A stretch of DNA of 64,000 nt from Shigella phage SHSML-52-1. Location of the stretch: sequence record KX130865, one strand, 5' to 3'. The position numbers were made by a program, and so were the translations under genes. Shown here one piece after another: positions 45,467 to 58,821 of the stretch. The notes below the pieces were generated by a model. The model was not told the DNA's origin. It made no database searches and worked only from the letters and a program-made list of their open reading frames with translations. Positions within the stretch are counted from its first letter, which is position 1. Each line of letters begins with the position of its first letter.

Positions 45467-48400
45467 TTATGCTAAACGAACGATATAGTTAAAAGCAACG
45501 TTTTTAACAGTGTTTTCTGTATTTCCTGTGGCATTTACAGTTATTGTATGTCCATGGGAACCAATTGCAACAGTATGAGAATGAGCACCAATACCCACCG
45601 AATGGGTATGAGCACCAATACCTACCGTATGAGCATGGTTACCCGTAGAGCTAGTAGTTCCTGACCAACTATGGGTGTGGGCACCGTCATTTGATGTTTT
45701 ACCGACCTTAGTTGCTAAAGTCGAACCAGTGATACCTGAGTTAATTTTAGCATATGAGTTTGCACCTATCGTAGTAACCCCGTCTCTAAACAAATCGTTT
45801 GCCCATGCAGCAGTGACCTGTGGACCTGAACGCGCGTGTTGGTGAGCTCCTGCGGAACTAGTATTACCACTCACTGTATGGTTATGGTTACCAGTGGTAT
45901 TACTGGTCTTAGTACCATAATCAAAGCTTGAAGTCGTTTTGCTACCGTAATCAAAACTAGAAGTGGTCTTAGTACCCAAATCTGTGCTTGATGCACTTGC
46001 ACTATGGCTATGTGACTTAACACCATCTGCTTCTGTACTTAATACAGCGCGCCCAGATGGTTTACCCTTGATAGTTTGACCACGCATATCAGGCAGAGCG
46101 CCAGAAGGATACACCGCAGCTAACTTAGGATACAAGCCAGTATCAAATGTTTGGCCTTCCATTATGGCATAACCTTCAGGAGGTGTATCAGTAGGCCAAG
46201 GAATCGGAGCACCAATTGGGTAACTCGAGACAATATCCGTCTTAAGGTTATTTATTGTGGTATTCAAGTTAGCAAAGTTGCCAGAACCACCAGTAATATT
46301 ACCATCAGTACCGAATTGAGCATTACCAACTTTTAATGGTTTAGTAATATCGACAGAATCAGAGTTTAATGCAATACCATGTGAATATGTGTAGCTGTGC
46401 ATACGAACGACGTTGCCGCCATCTCCAATACCTAAATACCATTTCGGAACATCTGCTTTACGTCCTTGAATGAAGTTAGAAGACTCTTGTGTTGGAGCAT
46501 TTATTCTAATAGCATCTGATGCCATATTTACTGTTATGCGTTGACCAGCCGTAGTTCCAGCCGCTTCTACTTTAAATCTACCGCCGCCGATATCTACATC
46601 ATGATCCATGGAAACTTTACCAGTACTTAATGTAATATAGAACGGACGTAAATTAGAAATACCACCTGATTCACCAACATTCTGTGGAGTTGGAATAATA
46701 TAAAGCTTATCTTCAGAACGACGGAAAATAGCCCCGTATTCAGCATCGTAAATACGGAAAGCATCAGCAGTCCCGCCAATTTTAACCTGTCCAGTAATTG
46801 AGGCACCACCTTGAACAAACAATCCATTATTCATTGTAACGTTGCCAACTAGAGTGCTTAATCCGTTAACTCTAAGACTTCCGTCGGTTATTAAGCTTCC
46901 TCTAGCATTAACCTGTCCATTGAACTGAGTTACAACAGGGCCTGTAGTTTCAGAACCGGTCGGAGCTACGCGTTGAGAATAGAAATAATAACCTTGGCCA
47001 TCAGAAACCTCAAATACGGTTTCTCGAGCTTTATCACCAGTAGCATTAAATGAGTTACCCCATGCTTTCACGGTCACATAACTTTTGTTCTGACCTGCAC
47101 GAGTACCGCCTTCCCAAAGGATTTGTTTGGTGCCATCAATACCTGAAGCCGCTTTAAAAACTAGAGAAGCATTAGTTCCATCACCATTAAAATATAATCC
47201 ATTATTAAGTTTTAACGTTTGAACAGAAGCGATGGTACCATCAGCACGCAAATTTAACGAATTTGAACCAGTTTTAATATCTAAAATGCCAGGCTCAACA
47301 AGAAGCCCATCACCCATACTAACGGACATACGACCAGTGCCACGGAAATAGTGATACATCTTGGCATTGCTGCTATAACCAATATGAGTCTGACCGTCAC
47401 CGTTATTATTACCATCAACATCGGTACGCGCAGTAAACATTGCTTGGTTGTTATTTGGGTAATCCCAAGTAGAACCAGAATCTCGACTATAACCAACCAT
47501 CAATTTTTTAGTACTGTTAATACCGTTATTAAGAATAGTGCCGGCAGAAATACCATTCGCAACTAAATCGATAACCCCGTCACGAACCCATTTAATACCA
47601 GTATCATTGTCACCAATTGCAATACCTTTACCAAACGAAACCAATGGATAACGTCCTTGGTCACCAACATCAGCAAGACCTATACCTATCGAATTAGCAA
47701 CAGACATACGCCCATCTGTGGTATAAGACCATTGATAAACTTCAGCATTACGTCCCGTCCAATACGAAATATTCTGTGGTTTACCTGAACGAGCATCGGC
47801 AACTTCATGGAAAATAGCAGAAGAAACATGTCCGCGGAATTTACGAAGGTAGTTTATACCATTAGTATCCAAATCTGTTTCGGTTGGAGTATAGTGCCAA
47901 GTCGGTAATGAAACTAAATCATATGCAGTATCAATATTAGTGTCCCAAGATTTAGTGCTCACATTGATATTTTTGGTAATAACTTTAGGACCAATTAAAG
48001 AACCAGCTTTAGTTTCAATATTACTTTGAGTAACTAAATATCCATTAGATACTAATAAACTTCCGGAATCAACTTGAAAATTACCGTTTCGATTAAAAGT
48101 CCAGTATTTTGAAGTCCCGGTTTCATCAATATAATGGAATTTAAAACTACCTTCGTTTACTAATGTACCAGCAGAAAAAGTTCCATCTTTATAGCGTTGT
48201 TTAATCAGTGGATGGTATTCTGAAACAGAAGTAGTTGAACTTAAATCTGTAAAGATAGGGGCTTTATTCGAATGTTGGTTAGCCCAAGCGCCATTTCCAG
48301 TGGTTTTAGGTAAAAATTCAATGTATTTTCCTGCATAAACAAACTGATTTCCATTGAGATTATACGTGCCGTTTTGTAAATAATCGCCAGTTTGAGTTAC

Positions 48401-55356: not shown

Positions 55357-55626
55357 ATGGCTAAGAAAGAAGCAGTTGAATTTAATCAAGATGTGCATGG
55401 TGAAGAACTGGCTAAACTAGTCAAGGAAGCTTCCGATAACAAACTTAAAATTTCTGGTTATAATGAACTGATTAAAGACATTCGTACTCGTGCTAAAGAA
55501 GAGCTTGGCGTCGATGGAAAAATGTTTAATCGTTTGTTAGCTCTTTATCATAAAGACGCACGTGACCAATTTGAAGCTGAAAACGAAGAGGTAGTCGAGC
55601 TTTATGACACAGTTTTCACTAAGTGA
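55357..55626 (+). CDS. dsbA: dsDNA-binding protein DsbA (late transcription)
   Basis: ATG 55357 gives an 89-aa protein MAKKEAVEF…ISGYNELIKDIRTRAKEELGVDGKMFNRLLALYHKD… matching T4 DsbA; track ORF starts 55339. Confidence 0.8.
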   Translation: MAKKEAVEFNQDVHGEELAKLVKEASDNKLKISGYNELIKDIRTRAKEELGVDGKMFNRLLALYHKDARDQFEAENEEVVELYDTVFTK

Positions 55627-55942
55627 TATTAAACCGGTTGATGAGACCGGTTTATCTGAACAAGAATTAACAGTAAAACACGATAAAGATGATATCGCTA
55701 AATTGCTTGACCGACAAGAAAATGGATTCATTATCGAATCCATGGTTGAAAAATTTGGTATGTCTTATTTAGAAGCAACAACTGCTTTCTTGGAAGAAAA
55801 TTCTATTCCAGAAACACAATTTGCTAAATTTATTCCTACAGGAATTGTTGAAAAAATTACAAGCGAAGCAATTGACGAAAATATGCTTCGCCCATCAGTT
55901 GCTCGTGGTGAAAAAACTAATACGTTAGATTTCTTATTATGA
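55604..55942 (+). CDS. 33: late transcription co-activator gp33
   Basis: 112 aa; MTQFSLSDIKPVDETGLSEQEL…FLEENSIPETQFAKFIP…NTLDFLL matches T4 gp33. Confidence 0.9.
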   Translation: MTQFSLSDIKPVDETGLSEQELTVKHDKDDIAKLLDRQENGFIIESMVEKFGMSYLEATTAFLEENSIPETQFAKFIPTGIVEKITSEAIDENMLRPSVARGEKTNTLDFLL

Positions 55943-56622
55943 AATACGTTGTGTATAAAACTACCAATAAAATAAATGGTAAAATTTATATAGGCGTACA
56001 CAAAAAACATAAAGAGAAAGATTGGTATATTGGATCAGGCCGCGCTATATTAGCGGCCAAAGCTAAATATGGACTAAAAAATTTTTATACCGAAATTCTT
56101 TATGAATATGATAATGACAAGGACGCCTATAAAAAAGAAGCAGAATTGGTTAACGAAGATTTTGTTTTGCGAGATGATACTTATAACTTAGTTCCCGGTG
56201 GTAAAGGTGGTCCTGGTAAAAAACAAAGTGATGAAGCTAAAAGGTCTATTTCACTTTCTAAATTAGGTAAACCTAGATCTGAAGAGACTAAGGCTAAAGT
56301 ATCTAAAACAAGACTAGAAAGAAAAATACCGTCACCTAATAAGGGTAAGAAACTATCTGAAGCTCACAAATTGGCCTTGAGTAAAGTCCGAAAAGGGCGA
56401 AAAACGAATAAGCCGATGCCTGATTCAACCAAAGAAGCTCTTAGAATAGCAAATTCAAAGCCGCATTCTAAAGAAAGAACTATTAAAAAACAAAAACCTA
56501 TAATTATTGATGGTACAAAATACGCCTCGTGTAAAGAAGTTTCAAATGTTTTTAATATTTCTGCGTCTTTAGTTACATATAGACTTAAATCTTCAAAATG
56601 GTCCGGATGGAAATATGATTAA
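55939..56622 (+). CDS. GIY-YIG homing endonuclease (Seg-like)
   Basis: 227 aa; N-terminal KYVVYKTTNKINGKIYIGVH…YIGSG…NLVPGG GIY-YIG domain; Lys-rich NUMOD-like repeats and a C-terminal DNA-binding region. Confidence 0.8.
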   Translation: MKYVVYKTTNKINGKIYIGVHKKHKEKDWYIGSGRAILAAKAKYGLKNFYTEILYEYDNDKDAYKKEAELVNEDFVLRDDTYNLVPGGKGGPGKKQSDEAKRSISLSKLGKPRSEETKAKVSKTRLERKIPSPNKGKKLSEAHKLALSKVRKGRKTNKPMPDSTKEALRIANSKPHSKERTIKKQKPIIIDGTKYASCKEVSNVFNISASLVTYRLKSSKWSGWKYD

Positions 56623-57268
56623 AATACGCATGCCTCCTGATGGAGAACGTTATATTAATGGAAAATCGGTATATAAACTATACTTGATGTGCAAAAACCA
56701 TTTTGGTGGTCGGTATGACGTAATCAAATATAACTGGTGCATGCGTGTTTCGGATAATGCGTATCAAAAACGCCGAGATAAATATTTCTTTGAGAAACTA
56801 GCAGAGAAATATAAGTTAAAGGAACTCACCTTGATATTCATCAGTAACTTAGTTGCTAACCAAGATGCATGGATTGGTGAGATATCAGACGCTGATGCAT
56901 TAGTTTTCTATAGGGAATATATTGGACGACTCAAACAAGCCAAGGAGACGTTTGCTGAAGATGTACGTAACATCTACTATTTCAGTAAGAAAGTGGAAGT
57001 TAGTGCGCTTCAAGAGATATTTGATTATAATAATAAAGTTCAGTCGAGCTACATATTTAAATTGCTACAAAGCAATATAATTTCATTTGAAACCTTCTTG
57101 TTGTTGGATTCATTCTTGAATATTATAGATAAGCATGACGAACTTACTGACAATTTAGTCTGGCAAAATTATTCTACCAAATTAAAGGCATATCGAAAAA
57201 TACTTCAAATCGATGGAAATGCTGCTAAGAAATTGTTCATAGAAACAATCAAATCATGTAAGTATTAA
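56615..57268 (+). CDS. 59: helicase loader gp59
   Basis: 217 aa; MIKIRMPPDGERYINGKSVYKLYLM…NWCMRVSDNAYQKRRDKYFF… matches T4 gp59. Confidence 0.93.
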   Translation: MIKIRMPPDGERYINGKSVYKLYLMCKNHFGGRYDVIKYNWCMRVSDNAYQKRRDKYFFEKLAEKYKLKELTLIFISNLVANQDAWIGEISDADALVFYREYIGRLKQAKETFAEDVRNIYYFSKKVEVSALQEIFDYNNKVQSSYIFKLLQSNIISFETFLLLDSFLNIIDKHDELTDNLVWQNYSTKLKAYRKILQIDGNAAKKLFIETIKSCKY

Positions 57269-57292
57269 GCTTTATTTCTTGTGTGTTAAAAT
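57267..57292 (+). promoter_or_regulatory. putative middle promoter for gene 32 (AAGCTTTA 57267-57274, -10 TAAAAT 57287-57292)
   Basis: MotA-box-like element with 12-bp spacing. Confidence 0.4.
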
Positions 57293-57297
57293 TACTT

Positions 57298-57305
57298 TAT
57301 AAATA
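57298..57305 (+). promoter_or_regulatory. late promoter TATAAATA upstream of gene 32
   Basis: Exact late consensus about 97 nt upstream of the gene 32 ATG. Confidence 0.45.
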
Positions 57306-57315
57306 AATCATACCA

Positions 57316-57339
57316 GCTACGAGGTATAAGTGTCGTAGC
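57316..57339 (+). promoter_or_regulatory. stem-loop in gene 32 leader (GCTACGA…TCGTAGC)
   Basis: 7-bp perfect inverted repeat with 10-nt loop at the 5' end of the leader, where T4 has a pseudoknot. Confidence 0.35.
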
Positions 57340-57351
57340 AACCAACTGTAA

Positions 57352-57402
57352 ATAAATTAAATAATCTAAATAATCTAAATAATCTAAATAAAGGTAAATA
57401 TA
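57352..57402 (+). repeat. A/U-rich tandem repeats (ATAATCTAA x3 plus degenerate copies) adjacent to the gene 32 start; putative gp32 translational operator
   Basis: Three perfect 9-bp units at 57361-57387 flanked by related copies; unstructured A/U-rich tract before the RBS. Confidence 0.55.
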
Positions 57403-58305
57403 ATGTTTAAACGTAAATCTACTGCTGACCTCGCTGCTCAAATGGCTAAACTGAACGGTAACAAAGGTTTCTCTTCAGAAGATAAAGGCGAATGGAAGCT
57501 GAAGCTAGATGCATCAGGTAATGGTCAAGCGGTAATTCGTTTCCTGCCAGCAAAAACTGATGACGCACTACCATTTGCAATTCTTGTTAACCACGGTTTC
57601 AAGAAAAATGGTAAATGGTATATTGAAAATTGCTCTTCTACACATGGTGATTACGACTCTTGTCCTGTATGTCAGTACATTAGTAAAAATGACCTGTACA
57701 ATACCAACAAAACTGAATATTCTCAACTGAAACGTAAAACTTCTTATTGGGCTAATATTCTGGTTGTTAAAGACCCTCAAGCTCCAGATAACGAAGGTAA
57801 AGTATTTAAATATCGTTTCGGTAAAAAGATTTGGGACAAAATCAATGCAATGATTGCAGTTGATACCGAAATGGGTGAAACTCCGGTTGATGTTACTTGT
57901 CCGTTTGAAGGTGCCAACTTCGTTCTGAAAGCTAAGCAGGTTTCCGGTTTTAGCAACTATGACGAATCTAAATTCTTGGGTCAATCTGAAATTCCTCGTA
58001 TTAATGACGAAGCATTCCAGAAAGAACTATATGACCAGATGGTAGACCTTACTACTTTGACGGCTAAAGACCAGTTCAAGTCCTTTGAAAAATTAAATGA
58101 ATCTTTCGCTAAGGTTCTTGGTACTGCCGCTCTTGGTGGTGCAGCAGCCGCAGCAGCTTCTGTTGCAGATAAAGTTGCTTCTGACCTTGACGATTTTGAT
58201 AAAGACATGGAAGCCTTTAGTTCTGCAAAAACTGAAGATGACTTCATGAGCTCTACCTCATCCTCTGATGATGGCGACCTCGATGACCTGTTAGCTGGTC
58301 TATAA
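57403..58305 (+). CDS. 32: single-stranded DNA-binding protein gp32
   Basis: 300 aa; [36 protein letters not shown]…; zinc-site Cys/His; acidic C-terminus; matches T4 gp32. Confidence 0.97.
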
Positions 58306-58311
58306 TAAATT

Positions 58312-58335
58312 GGGAGACTTCGGTCTCCCTTTTGA
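58312..58335 (+). terminator. rho-independent terminator after gene 32 (GGGAGAC-UUCG-GUCUCCC + U-run)
   Basis: Perfect 7-bp stem, UUCG loop, followed by TTTTGAG. Confidence 0.75.
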
Positions 58336-58359
58336 GTATCTGTAAATTGCCGAAAAAGT

Positions 58360-58405
58360 TGTTTACTTCTTCCCTTGTTTACTTCTTCCCTGGATGTGTT
58401 AGTAT
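58360..58405 (+). promoter_or_regulatory. early promoter with tandemly duplicated -35 region (TGTTTACTTCTTCCCT x2) and -10 TAGTAT
   Basis: 16-bp unit at 58360-58375 and 58376-58391; second GTTTAC is 17 bp from the -10 at 58400-58405. Confidence 0.5.
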
Positions 58406-58434
58406 AGACCTATTAACAACATGAGGAAACCAAA

Positions 58435-58821
58435 ATGGAAATCGGAAAATCTTATATCATCAACCCTTTATTTAAAGACGACTTTGCTAACGAGTGCCGT
58501 TGCAATACAATAATGCTAAATTTAATAGAGAAGCACGGACCTAGTTTTGTTGTAGATGAAATGGAAAGTGATGATTGTGCTGGTGAATGTGTGGTACGTG
58601 TAACTATGGAAGATGGCACTGAATACATGGCGAGTGGCCCACTTGAGACGTATTTTGAGATTTACTCTGAAGAATTCAAATACTTTACTGAGGTAGATTT
58701 AGTAAAACCTCAACCTACTAACGAAGGTATAACTTTAGGTGTAACAAAAATCCATTGTATCGTAGATGAAACCAACGTCGACGAAATCATCGAACTTTTG
58801 CAAAAAACTTTTAAAAAGTAG
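58435..58821 (+). CDS. hypothetical acidic protein (128 aa)
   Basis: Track ORF with RBS TGAGGAAACC. Confidence 0.5.
   Translation: MEIGKSYIINPLFKDDFANECRCNTIMLNLIEKHGPSFVVDEMESDDCAGECVVRVTMEDGTEYMASGPLETYFEIYSEEFKYFTEVDLVKPQPTNEGITLGVTKIHCIVDETNVDEIIELLQKTFKK

Follow-up and report, generated by a model that had tools for sequence, protein, structure and literature searches.

Three perfect 9-nt repeats upstream of gene 32 in Shigella phage SHSML-52-1: a probable length variant of the RB69-type gp32 operator

Directly upstream of gene 32 of Shigella phage SHSML-52-1, a short leader carries promoter-like elements, a base-paired element and a tandem repeat. Does this leader embody a new design of autogenous control by gp32, or is it a version of an operator already known from related phages? 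The region studied comprises positions 57267-57402 of a 64-kb stretch of sequence record KX130865 (hereafter the window). A preliminary description, made from the sequence alone, had listed a MotA-box promoter, the late promoter motif TATAAATA, a 7-bp stem and three perfect repeats, and all of these were found in this region at the positions given. We consider it probable that this region serves as the regulatory leader of gene 32 in an RB69-like (Mosigvirus) phage, with the triple repeat representing a tolerated length variant of small effect.

Genes and promoters around the leader

The window phage belongs to Mosigvirus, the genus of RB69, and its closest relative is Shigella phage Shf125875. 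A similarity search with the locus matched 152 records, mostly Mosigvirus. The best match was Shf125875 (KM407600 / NC_025437), whose gene 59-32 intergenic region is 99.3% identical over 57200-57480, with one substitution in the middle-promoter spacer, and contains three perfect repeat units too. In the Shf125875 record two CDSs are annotated and the leader is not. The genes and putative transcription signals of the locus are:

56615-57268, + strand: gene 59 (helicase loader) CDS, from the ORF list; annotated thus in Shf125875, RB69 and others
57007-57031, + strand: second MotA-box/-10 match, GCTTCA-N13-TATAAT, inside gene 59 (pattern match)
57265-57274, + strand: MotA-box-like TTAAGCTTTA, from sequence; invariant in 17 Mosigvirus leaders
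57266-57268, + strand: gene 59 stop codon TAA, overlapping the MotA box
57287-57292, + strand: putative middle promoter -10 element TAAAAT, 12 nt after the MotA box (pattern match 57269-57292)
57298-57305, + strand: putative late promoter TATAAATA, exact match; annotated as late promoter in the record of phage SA79RD
57403-58305, + strand: gene 32 (gp32, single-stranded DNA binding protein, 300 aa), from the ORF list and homology
58312-58337, + strand: intrinsic terminator 3′ of gene 32, GGGAGACTTCGGTCTCCC then TTTT (terminator scan)

The T4-like layout that had been proposed (a middle and a late promoter, then a structured 5′ element and an A/U tract serving cooperative autorepression by gp32) is supported by the homology of the leader to the RB69 operator and by the encoded gp32, which is 93% identical to RB69 gp32 and 83% identical to T4 gp32. 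Residues 1-75, including the N-terminal cooperativity segment with KRKST at 3-7, are the same as in RB69 gp32, and the Zn-finger Cys/His residues are kept. An ORF of 49 aa on the minus strand (57292-57441, with a 'DYLDYLDYL' stretch) was dismissed as arising from the repeat; it runs antisense to the beginning of gene 32. Scanning 56600-58500 against Rfam (E ≤ 10) returned chance matches of snoRNA type only and no family for the leader element; Rfam appears to hold no model for the gene 32 pseudoknot.

T4-type middle promoters combine a MotA box wwwTGCTTtA near -30 with a sigma-70 -10 element TAnnnT located 12 ± 1 bp downstream (PMC2988021), and a motA orthologue is present in RB69 (PMC1524935). 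Box, spacing and -10 element upstream of gene 32 agree with this consensus, except for one mismatch in TTAAGCTTTA (A for the conserved T before GCTT). Box and -10 element are conserved among the relatives while the spacer varies, and variant -10 elements retain the form TAnnnT (TAGAAT in moha and pEB20). In the window, the pattern GCTTYA-N11-13-TANNNT was found 28 times, with 5.5 occurrences expected. Based on the -12 to -7 numbering of the -10 element, transcription is predicted to start near 57299. The second match, within gene 59, carries the label of a T4-like middle promoter in the SA79RD record and may be a further middle promoter from which gene 32 is transcribed.

In T4-type late promoters, TATAAATA occupies positions -13 to -6 (PMC1524935). 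With the same placement in the leader, late transcription is predicted to begin near U57311, on the 5′ border of the pseudoknot described below; RNA starting there would lose the first nucleotide of stem 1. A gp33 gene, so annotated in relatives, lies at 55604-55942, and motif, position and gp33 gene fit a predicted T4-type late promoter. Since TATAAATA alone is not enriched in the 64-kb window (5 found, 7.5 expected), support for the late promoter comes from conservation and position: the motif is invariant in 17 Mosigvirus leaders and precedes the pseudoknot in five further lineages.

The promoter block is compact, occupying 42 bp directly after the gene 59 stop, and T2-type leaders show the same dual arrangement. 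T4 also has a documented middle promoter (P32) and TATAAATA upstream of gene 32, in the same order of middle promoter, late promoter and pseudoknot and with the same MotA box to -10 spacing of 12-13 bp. However, the T4 promoters are located about 150-200 nt upstream, inside segG, whereas those of the window abut the pseudoknot, and the MotA box reads AGCTTTA in the window rather than TGCTTTA. With two stacked promoters, one presumably MotA/AsiA-dependent and the other presumably gp55-dependent, gene 32 could therefore have transcripts of its own during both the middle and the late phase of infection.

A pseudoknot at the 5′ end of the leader

The gene 32 operator of RB69 has been characterised experimentally (Borjac-Natour, Petrov & Karam 2004; PMC535899). 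Probing supports a pseudoknot and a single-stranded segment from -1 to -45; the gp32 footprint extends from -14 to -61, the tract A(-45) to A(-1) is protected by gp32, and gp32 represses its own translation both in vivo and in vitro (PMC535899). The window contains a 30-nt sequence identical to the probed RB69 pseudoknot, and 57310-57339 is accordingly predicted to form an H-type pseudoknot with a stem 1 of 5 bp, a single A as loop 1, a stem 2 of 7 bp and a loop 2 of 5 nt:

57310-57314, + strand: stem 1 5′ arm AUACC, pairing with 57323-57327
57315, + strand: loop 1, single A; invariant in 8 of 8 lineages
57316-57322, + strand: stem 2 5′ arm GCUACGA, pairing with 57333-57339
57323-57327, + strand: stem 1 3′ arm GGUAU (covariation)
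57328-57332, + strand: loop 2 AAGUG, identical in T4 and RB69
57333-57339, + strand: stem 2 3′ arm UCGUAGC (covariation)

The pairing of GCTACGA with TCGTAGC, originally described as a stem-loop, is confirmed by the fold of the stem region (-10.7 kcal/mol, z = -3.35; 2 of 200 shuffles equally good) and by covariation in stem 2. The 7-bp stem, though real, is only half of the structure: stem 1, formed by AUACC and GGUAU, had been missed, and the element is a pseudoknot instead. Folded alone, the hairpins reach -8.4 kcal/mol (stem 2) and -3.4 kcal/mol (stem 1). Across eight T4-like lineages, 95.8% of cells pair in the two stems, compared with 25-53% when the partner is slid by 1-3 columns; for stem 2, the value is 100%. 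Compensatory changes were detected at 7 of the 12 pairs (three of five in stem 1 and four of seven in stem 2), and the observed covariation score was reached by none of 500 shuffles. Owing to the variable length of loop 2, a MAFFT alignment of the natural pseudoknot sequences put the 3′ arm of stem 1 in the wrong place. Pairs were counted on rows of equal length, with loop 2 cut to its last 2 nt and with L035 and L036 excluded, which apparently possess both stems but carry a 10-nt insert.

RNA structure prediction, suggested earlier as a check, found the stem region significant and the tract unstructured, but the MFE fold of the leader (57299-57440) did not recover the pseudoknot and formed a long-range helix to codons 9-12 instead. 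Pseudoknots are outside the model of ViennaRNA. The helix between the pseudoknot region and codons 9-12 was set aside as not significant (z = -0.70).

The gene 32 site of T4, T2 and T6 (a pseudoknot followed by a UUAAA/UAAA tract) has the same architecture and is homologous in sequence to that of the window. Stem 2 differs from its T4 counterpart by one compensatory pair (C-G in the window, U-A in T4), and loop 1 (A), the AACUGU motif after the knot and an A/U tract overlapping the RBS are common to both. The rpsO operator of E. coli likewise involves an autogenous repressor, S15, whose target is a pseudoknot in the leader of its own mRNA (PMC3014915). The two operators share no sequence relationship, and S15 traps the ribosome and does not polymerise along a lattice, so the likeness is an analogy only.

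The A/U tract and its variable repeat

Between the pseudoknot and the AUG, the following elements were identified:

57340-57402, + strand: A/U-rich tract of 63 nt (57% A, 29% U), the presumed cooperative gp32 lattice
57344-57352, + strand: AACUGUAAA motif, directly 3′ of the pseudoknot; shared by most of the T4-like gene 32 leaders compared
57349-57393, + strand: array of five 9-nt units (Tandem Repeats Finder, repeat search and alignment with RB69, which has 3 units)
57349-57357, + strand: array unit 1, TAAATAAAT
57358-57366, 57367-57375 and 57376-57384, + strand: array units 2-4, each TAAATAATC
57367-57384, + strand: the 18 nt extra with respect to RB69 (two TAAATAATC units), from alignment; which two of the three identical units count as extra is arbitrary
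57385-57393, + strand: array unit 5, TAAATAAAG
57391-57395, + strand: Shine-Dalgarno (SD) sequence AAGGU, 7 nt before the AUG, corresponding to G(-10) and G(-9) of RB69

The tract consists of 86% A+U and includes seven UAAA elements. No significant fold was predicted within it (MFE -1.0 kcal/mol, z = +0.94), and the computed accessibility of the SD was unchanged over 0 to 6 unit copies. Tandem Repeats Finder reported 57349-57391 with a period of 9, 4.8 copies and 94% matches. The sequence ATAATCTAA occurs three times at 57361-57387, ending 16 nt before the ATG at 57403, and the repeats sit upstream of the SD. This is the sole perfect tandem of at least three copies with a period of 6-15 in the 64-kb window; such repeats arose in three of 300 sequences simulated from a first-order Markov model of the window.

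The RB69 locus shares with the window the gene order 59-32 without an intervening segG, a nearly identical promoter block (a few middle-promoter spacer positions differ), the SD context and a tract built of TAAATAANN units. However, the RB69 tract measures 45 nt and has one TAAATAATC unit, while that of the window measures 63 nt and has three perfect units. The only large difference between the two leaders is thus an insertion of 18 nt, exactly two TAAATAATC units, which the window and Shf125875 have but RB69 and most Mosigvirus genomes lack. The repeat had been called different and strikingly periodic compared with T4. The periodic array is real, but it does not constitute a new operator design, since the RB69 tract already contains three degenerate 9-nt units of which this is an expansion. 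Compared with T4-type phages, the unit has 9 nt (UAAAUAANN) instead of 5 nt (UUAAA), and the tract is 63 nt long instead of the 39 nt of T4.

Length variation of the tract is widespread. Mosigvirus genomes form an allelic series with 3, 4 or 5 units of TAAATAANN, and T4/T2-type phages (Tequatrovirus) have 2-5 UUAAA units. The expanded unit is not always the same one: mogra and PhAPEC2 have two copies of unit 1, LNA2 and the metagenome locus L105 have two copies of unit 2, and unit 2 is triplicated in the window phage and Shf125875, the only ones among the records compared with the allele of three perfect copies. In 59 evenly spaced records out of the 152, the tract was extended by 18 nt in one and by 9 to 11 nt in eight, and had the base length in 45; these frequencies are indirect, being derived from alignment lengths in the phage collection because exact-pattern scans yielded too few loci (three in IMG/VR and four in the metagenome collection). 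One contig (L008) encodes a 100% identical gp32 and yet has a single copy of the unit, so the protein has not changed along with the repeat. The tract is a slippage-prone array, and the extra copies most likely arose by replication slippage. No relevant account of a repeat polymorphism in the gene 32 leader turned up in the literature searched.

An early concern was that the repeats might lie outside the mature transcript. They are located 3′ of both predicted starts (about 57299 and about 57311), and the mature 5′ end in T4, where RNase E trims the gene 32 RNA at -71, is just 5′ of the pseudoknot; the repeats should therefore fall within every gene 32 mRNA. RNase E processing of the gene 32 RNA of the window phage would be expected by extrapolation from RB69 and T4.

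Lattice length, gp32 autoregulation and competing explanations

The locus combines a gp32 orthologue downstream, a 5′ pseudoknot, an unstructured A/U tract running through SD and AUG, and a gp32 with the N-terminal segment and the ssDNA-binding core. We regard the leader as the longest allele of an already known operator, a system characterised in RB69. By analogy with RB69 and T4, regulation would proceed as follows. Transcripts initiated at the predicted middle and late promoters would fold at their 5′ ends into the compact H-type pseudoknot, followed by the 63-nt structure-free tract that holds SD and AUG. Once there is more free gp32 than single-stranded DNA to bind it, the protein would nucleate at or next to the pseudoknot and polymerise cooperatively along the tract, covering the RBS and switching off its own translation; binding and repression at the three-unit allele are likewise extrapolated from RB69 and T4. 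The two extra units would lengthen the gp32 lattice from the 45 nt of RB69 to 63 nt, with room for roughly 2.5 additional gp32 monomers, and would leave pseudoknot, SD, protein and predicted RNA structure as before. In a finite-lattice model (n = 7, omega = 1000), the concentration for half-occlusion shifted by at most 1.4-fold between 45 and 63 nt, a value to be taken as an order-of-magnitude guide given the register artefacts of this crude model, notably at 45 nt. The most likely consequence would thus be small, i.e. a slightly lower or sharper repression threshold. A larger effect than modelled may still occur, as RB69 gp32 and T4 gp32 contact the tract differently.

Possibly, repeat number acts as an adaptive rheostat, with selection resetting the gp32 concentration for shut-off or the translation efficiency of the leader, and with different settings suiting different hosts or replication loads. 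Length changes recur independently, with different units and in two genera, next to an invariant pseudoknot and promoters; they lie exactly in the segment protected by RB69 gp32, and in cooperative-lattice theory the length of the lattice is expected to matter to some degree. We nevertheless judge such selection unlikely: the modelled shift is small, identical gp32 proteins occur with one and with three copies, the three-copy allele is rare (1 of the 59 sampled records), and mutation bias alone gives recurrent changes by unit multiples in any tandem array. Equally doubtful in our estimate is the related proposal that the tract is a built-in microsatellite whose frequent unit changes (9 nt in RB69-like, 5 nt in T4-like phages) reset the set point or yield of gp32. 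If true, phage populations would have a heritable and quickly reversible dial for the gp32 level, and the window would represent its highest setting so far.

Other explanations assign the repeats to a different factor or to no regulatory role in RNA. Binding of another RNA-binding regulator, such as an RB69-type RegA, instead of or besides gp32 would fit the RB69 RegA SELEX sequence AAUAAUAAUAAnA, i.e. UAA triplets (review PMC3014915), as UAA triplets are abundant in the tract and the unit UAAAUAAUC has two UAA and one AAUAAU. We consider this very unlikely, given that gene 32 is not named as a RegA target in the available part of that review, that RegA binds at the AUG or immediately beside it, whereas the extra units are 19-45 nt upstream, and that the homologous tract was footprinted and repressed by RB69 gp32 alone. 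Slightly less probable still is that the GC-containing hairpin is a gene 59 terminator or merely a 5′ stabilising stem-loop, with the A/U repeats as a spacer. The hairpin is annotated as a rho-independent terminator in the SA79RD GenBank record, and the T4 gene 32 mRNA is unusually stable, although polycistronic read-through RNA is a further source of gene 32 expression in T4 (both in PMC3014915). However, the stem is followed 3′ by AACCAACUG, which has no U-run, and the terminator scan reported no site there; an intrinsic terminator was rejected on the lack of the U-run. Stem 1, needless for a simple terminator, covaries as well, and a stabilising role could go together with the operator and would not replace it. 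Least credible of all, to the point of near-exclusion, is a function of the repeats in DNA, as iterons or as the A+T-rich unwinding element of a middle-promoter-dependent origin. In the T4 origins ori(uvsY) and ori(34), a MotA-dependent promoter is followed by an A+T-rich unwinding element, an arrangement that the layout of the gene 32 leader superficially resembles. Yet neither T4 nor RB69 is known to have an origin at gene 32, the tract belongs to a transcribed leader with an experimentally supported role in RNA, and unit number varies freely, with very short alleles included.

The gp32 operator, our preferred reading of this leader, carries a caution for annotators, namely that the leader hairpin is not a terminator. 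It also bears on a classic case of regulation, in which gp32 gauges its own free concentration via cooperative binding to an unstructured mRNA lattice. In these phages the lattice forms a natural allelic series in which pseudoknot and SD stay the same, as does the protein in at least one case, and the series offers ready-made constructs for relating lattice length to the threshold and steepness of repression.

Leader layout and pseudoknot

A 281-nt leader query matched 152 phage records, nearly all Mosigvirus (the RB69 genus), with Shigella phage Shf125875 as top match (99.3%); RB69 matched at 89%. The gp32 encoded in the window is 93% identical to RB69 gp32 (residues 1-75 are the same) and 83% identical to T4 gp32. 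The region between genes 59 and 32 contains the following elements.

Features of the gene 32 leader
57265-57274: MotA-box-like TTAAGCTTTA, followed 3' by a 12-nt spacer before the -10
57266-57268: stop codon TAA of gene 59 (helicase loader)
57287-57292: middle-promoter -10, TAAAAT
57298-57305: TATAAATA, late promoter motif
57316-57322 and 57333-57339: stem arms GCTACGA and complementary TCGTAGC
57361-57387: three perfect copies of ATAATCTAA, the last ending 16 nt 5' of the ATG
57403: gene 32 start codon ATG

The MotA box, late promoter motif, 7-bp stem and perfect repeats were all present where the preliminary description had placed them. The stem had been described as a stem-loop, but a second stem had been overlooked: AUACC (57310-57314) pairs with GGUAU (57323-57327) in the loop of the 7-bp stem, giving an H-type pseudoknot with a single A as loop 1 and AAGUG as loop 2. 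Taken singly, stem 2 (7 bp) has an energy of -8.4 kcal/mol and stem 1 of -3.4 kcal/mol; the local fold of the stem region has z = -3.35.

Covariation was analyzed in upstream regions of gp32-encoding IMG/VR loci from many T4-like lineages. Eight distinct pseudoknot sequences were found, with six different stem-2 sequences. After trimming loop 2 to equal length, 95.8% of alignment cells held standard pairs, compared with 25-53% when, as a control, the 3' partners were offset by 1-3 columns. Changes on both sides occurred in 7 of 12 pairs, and none of 500 shuffles matched the observed covariation score. No Rfam family matched the leader element. The pseudoknot core (57315-57325) is also complementary at 9 of 11 positions to gene 32 codons 9-12 (57428-57438); the whole-leader minimum free energy (MFE) structure picks this helix, in a fold no better than shuffles.

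The leader was aligned with those of RB69, mogra and T4. The pseudoknot is identical in RB69, whereas T4 differs by one compensatory pair in stem 2 (C-G in the window, U-A in T4) and has a G-U in stem 1 where the window has A-U; the window also has one more A-U pair at the outer end of stem 1. The RB69 leader was found to be single-stranded from -1 to -45, with a segment further upstream behaving as the predicted pseudoknot; RB69 gp32 gave a strong footprint from U(-14) to G(-61) and a weak one from U(-2) to G(-9), and repressed its own mRNA about 4-fold in vivo and also in vitro (Borjac-Natour et al. 2004, PMC535899). For T4, passages of the review by Uzan and Miller (PMC3014915) describe gp32 nucleation at the pseudoknot and cooperative spread over a UUAA(A)-rich tract to the ribosome-binding site, as well as RNase E cleavage of all gene 32 mRNAs at -71, 4 nt 5' of the pseudoknot. 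Leader homology and the RB69 footprint and repression results support the T4-like operator layout proposed for gp32 autorepression.

The A/U-rich tract and its alleles

Tandem Repeats Finder (TRF) reported a period-9 array of 4.8 copies at 57349-57391. Read in register, it comprises five units (TAAATAAAT, three copies of TAAATAATC, and TAAATAAAG), the last extending into the Shine-Dalgarno (SD) sequence AAGGU. Across the 64-kb window it is the sole perfect tandem that has a period of 6-15 and at least three copies, and a comparable one arose in just 3 of 300 Markov simulations. The top TRF score in the window belongs to 45560-45637 (27-nt period, 2.9 copies, 78% matches). Positions 57340-57420 are nearly devoid of predicted structure (MFE -1.0 kcal/mol, z +0.94), and the predicted accessibility of SD and AUG is unaltered across 0 to 6 units.

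In 17 Mosigvirus leaders aligned to the window, the pseudoknot was invariant and the promoters nearly so; length differences were restricted to the tract between pseudoknot and AUG. Tequatrovirus (T4- and T2-type phages) tracts were likewise polymorphic in copy number, with a unit of their own, UUAAA.

Tract alleles (L numbers denote loci from IMG/VR, metagenome and phage collections)
Three units (TAAATAAAT, TAAATAATC, TAAATAAAG): RB69, SA79RD, IMG/VR contig L008
Unit 1 duplicated: mogra, PhAPEC2
Unit 2 duplicated: LNA2, metagenome locus L105
Duplicate carrying one substitution: p000y
Unit 2 triplicated: window, Shf125875
Shorter diverged tracts: NBG1, phi25-307, F2
UUAAA, two copies: SHFML-26, L018
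UUAAA, three copies: T4
UUAAA, four copies: SfPhi01, JEP6
UUAAA, five copies: SG1, HY03

Allele sizes were read from alignment lengths in 59 full-length records sampled at even spacing: one was 18 nt longer, eight were 9 to 11 nt longer, five were 6 nt longer, and 45 had the base length or less. UUAAA copy number varied on T4-type and T2-type pseudoknot backgrounds alike (loci L106-L110, L018, L001). Expansion of different units by lineage and genus points to recurrent replication slippage as the probable source of the length changes.

The repeat had been presented as different from the known operator. The sole large difference from RB69 is instead an 18-nt insertion, i.e. two additional TAAATAATC units, with pseudoknot-AUG distances of 63 nt (window), 45 nt (RB69) and 39 nt (T4). 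As judged from these alignments, the leader repeat is a polymorphic array, an expansion of the RB69 tract and no new design. The window holds the longest allele seen within a well-characterised operator family; this allele was already present, unremarked, in the GenBank record of Shf125875. Since L008 combines a single-copy tract with a gp32 100% identical to that of the window, no protein change accompanies the repeat.

Predicted transcript starts and neighboring sequences

The MotA-box consensus is wwwTGCTTtA, separated from the -10 element by 12 +/- 1 bp (PMC2988021), and the window site fits consensus and spacing with one deviation. GCTTYA-N11-13-TANNNT occurs 28 times in the window against 5.5 expected, a five-fold enrichment; a second match lies within gene 59 (57007-57031). 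Across Mosigvirus, MotA box and TAnnnT are kept and the spacer varies. In T4-type late promoters, TATAAATA spans -13 to -6 (PMC1524935). It is no commoner than chance in the window (5 observed, 7.5 expected); the leader copy is invariant across the aligned Mosigvirus leaders, and the motif also lies 5' of the pseudoknot in T2-type phages and loci L022, L026, L027 and L028. In T4, by comparison, the documented middle promoter P32 (start -204) and TATAAATA (-158 to -151) both lie within the inserted segG gene.

Standard promoter numbering would put the middle start near 57299 and the late one near U57311; the late 5' end would then lie at the pseudoknot edge, resembling RNase E-trimmed T4 mRNA. 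The repeats lie 3' of both predicted starts and hence, by geometry, inside either transcript. In several lineages (window, 57298-57314; L026, L027, L028), TATAAATA is just 3-5 nt from stem 1, and the predicted late start falls at its 5' arm or 1-3 nt inside; in the window, stem 1 would be cut to 4 bp. The stability of the pseudoknot might therefore not be the same in late as in middle transcripts. An inverted repeat (57263-57277/57386-57400, 13 of 15 complementary) joins the gene 59 stop/MotA-box region to the last repeat unit and gene 32 SD. Only read-through transcripts that start at promoters further upstream would carry both arms, so pairing of the arms, which is AU-rich with no covariation seen, could mask the SD on polycistronic RNA before processing.

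AACTGT(A/T/C)AA follows the pseudoknot in the window (57344-57352), T4, T2-type phages, L022 and L026-28, and occurs two to four times in leaders of pseudoknot-less T4-like phages (among loci L009-L033), where it lies inside the gene 59 3' end (...KQLFIKTVKNCKY*) adjoining the gene 32 SD. The window's AACTGTAAATA after the pseudoknot equals this gene 59 end, which hints that the promoter-plus-pseudoknot block (57269-57343) may have been inserted into the gene 59 stop region, or duplicated from it.

Between genes 33 and 59 lies an ORF of 227 aa for a seg-like GIY-YIG homing endonuclease (55939-56622, + strand). Of 163 matching phage records, only 27 match it over its full length (Shf125875 among them, RB69 not); T4 has the analogous mobile segG on the opposite side of gene 59, beside gene 32. 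Directly past the gene 32 terminator, a 16-bp perfect direct repeat, TTGTTTACTTCTTCCC (two copies, 58359-58391, + strand), doubles a GTTTAC -35-like box. The second GTTTAC (58377-58382) is followed by 17 nt ending in TGT and by TAGTAT (58400-58405), and the arrangement resembles an early promoter of the T4 type that would serve the ORF coming next (58435-58821).

Expected effect of the added units

The best-supported reading is that the RB69/T4 autorepression mechanism would operate here on a lattice 18 nt longer. The site size of gp32 is roughly 7 nt per monomer, and the tract would accommodate about 2.5 additional monomers. In a finite-lattice cooperative binding model (n = 7, omega = 1000, nucleation bonuses 1 to 30000), the concentration for SD half-occlusion shifted at most 1.4-fold between 45-nt and 63-nt tracts, with register artefacts present. 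From this small modelled shift, we expect the extra units to lower or sharpen the repression threshold slightly.

Most simply, the triple-unit allele is a tolerated slippage variant. Unit number could instead serve as an adaptive rheostat, which we regard as unlikely, the recurrence of length changes being the sole positive evidence. RegA binding at the UAA-rich repeats is considerably less probable still: RB69 RegA selects UAA triplets, according to passages in PMC3014915, but the additional units are distant from the AUG and gp32 by itself suffices in RB69. Slightly lower again we place, jointly, the hairpin acting as a terminator or a stabilising stem. The SA79RD record OL960576 (L101, 317-350) labels pseudoknot stem 2 a rho-independent terminator; however, no U-run follows the stem, a terminator scan found none there, and stem 1 covaries too. 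Lacking the U-run, that label looks like a misannotation. An origin or iteron role of the repeats as DNA found no support.

The interest of the element is modest and lies in the natural allelic series of lattice lengths, against which the cooperative-lattice model of gp32 autoregulation could be tested.
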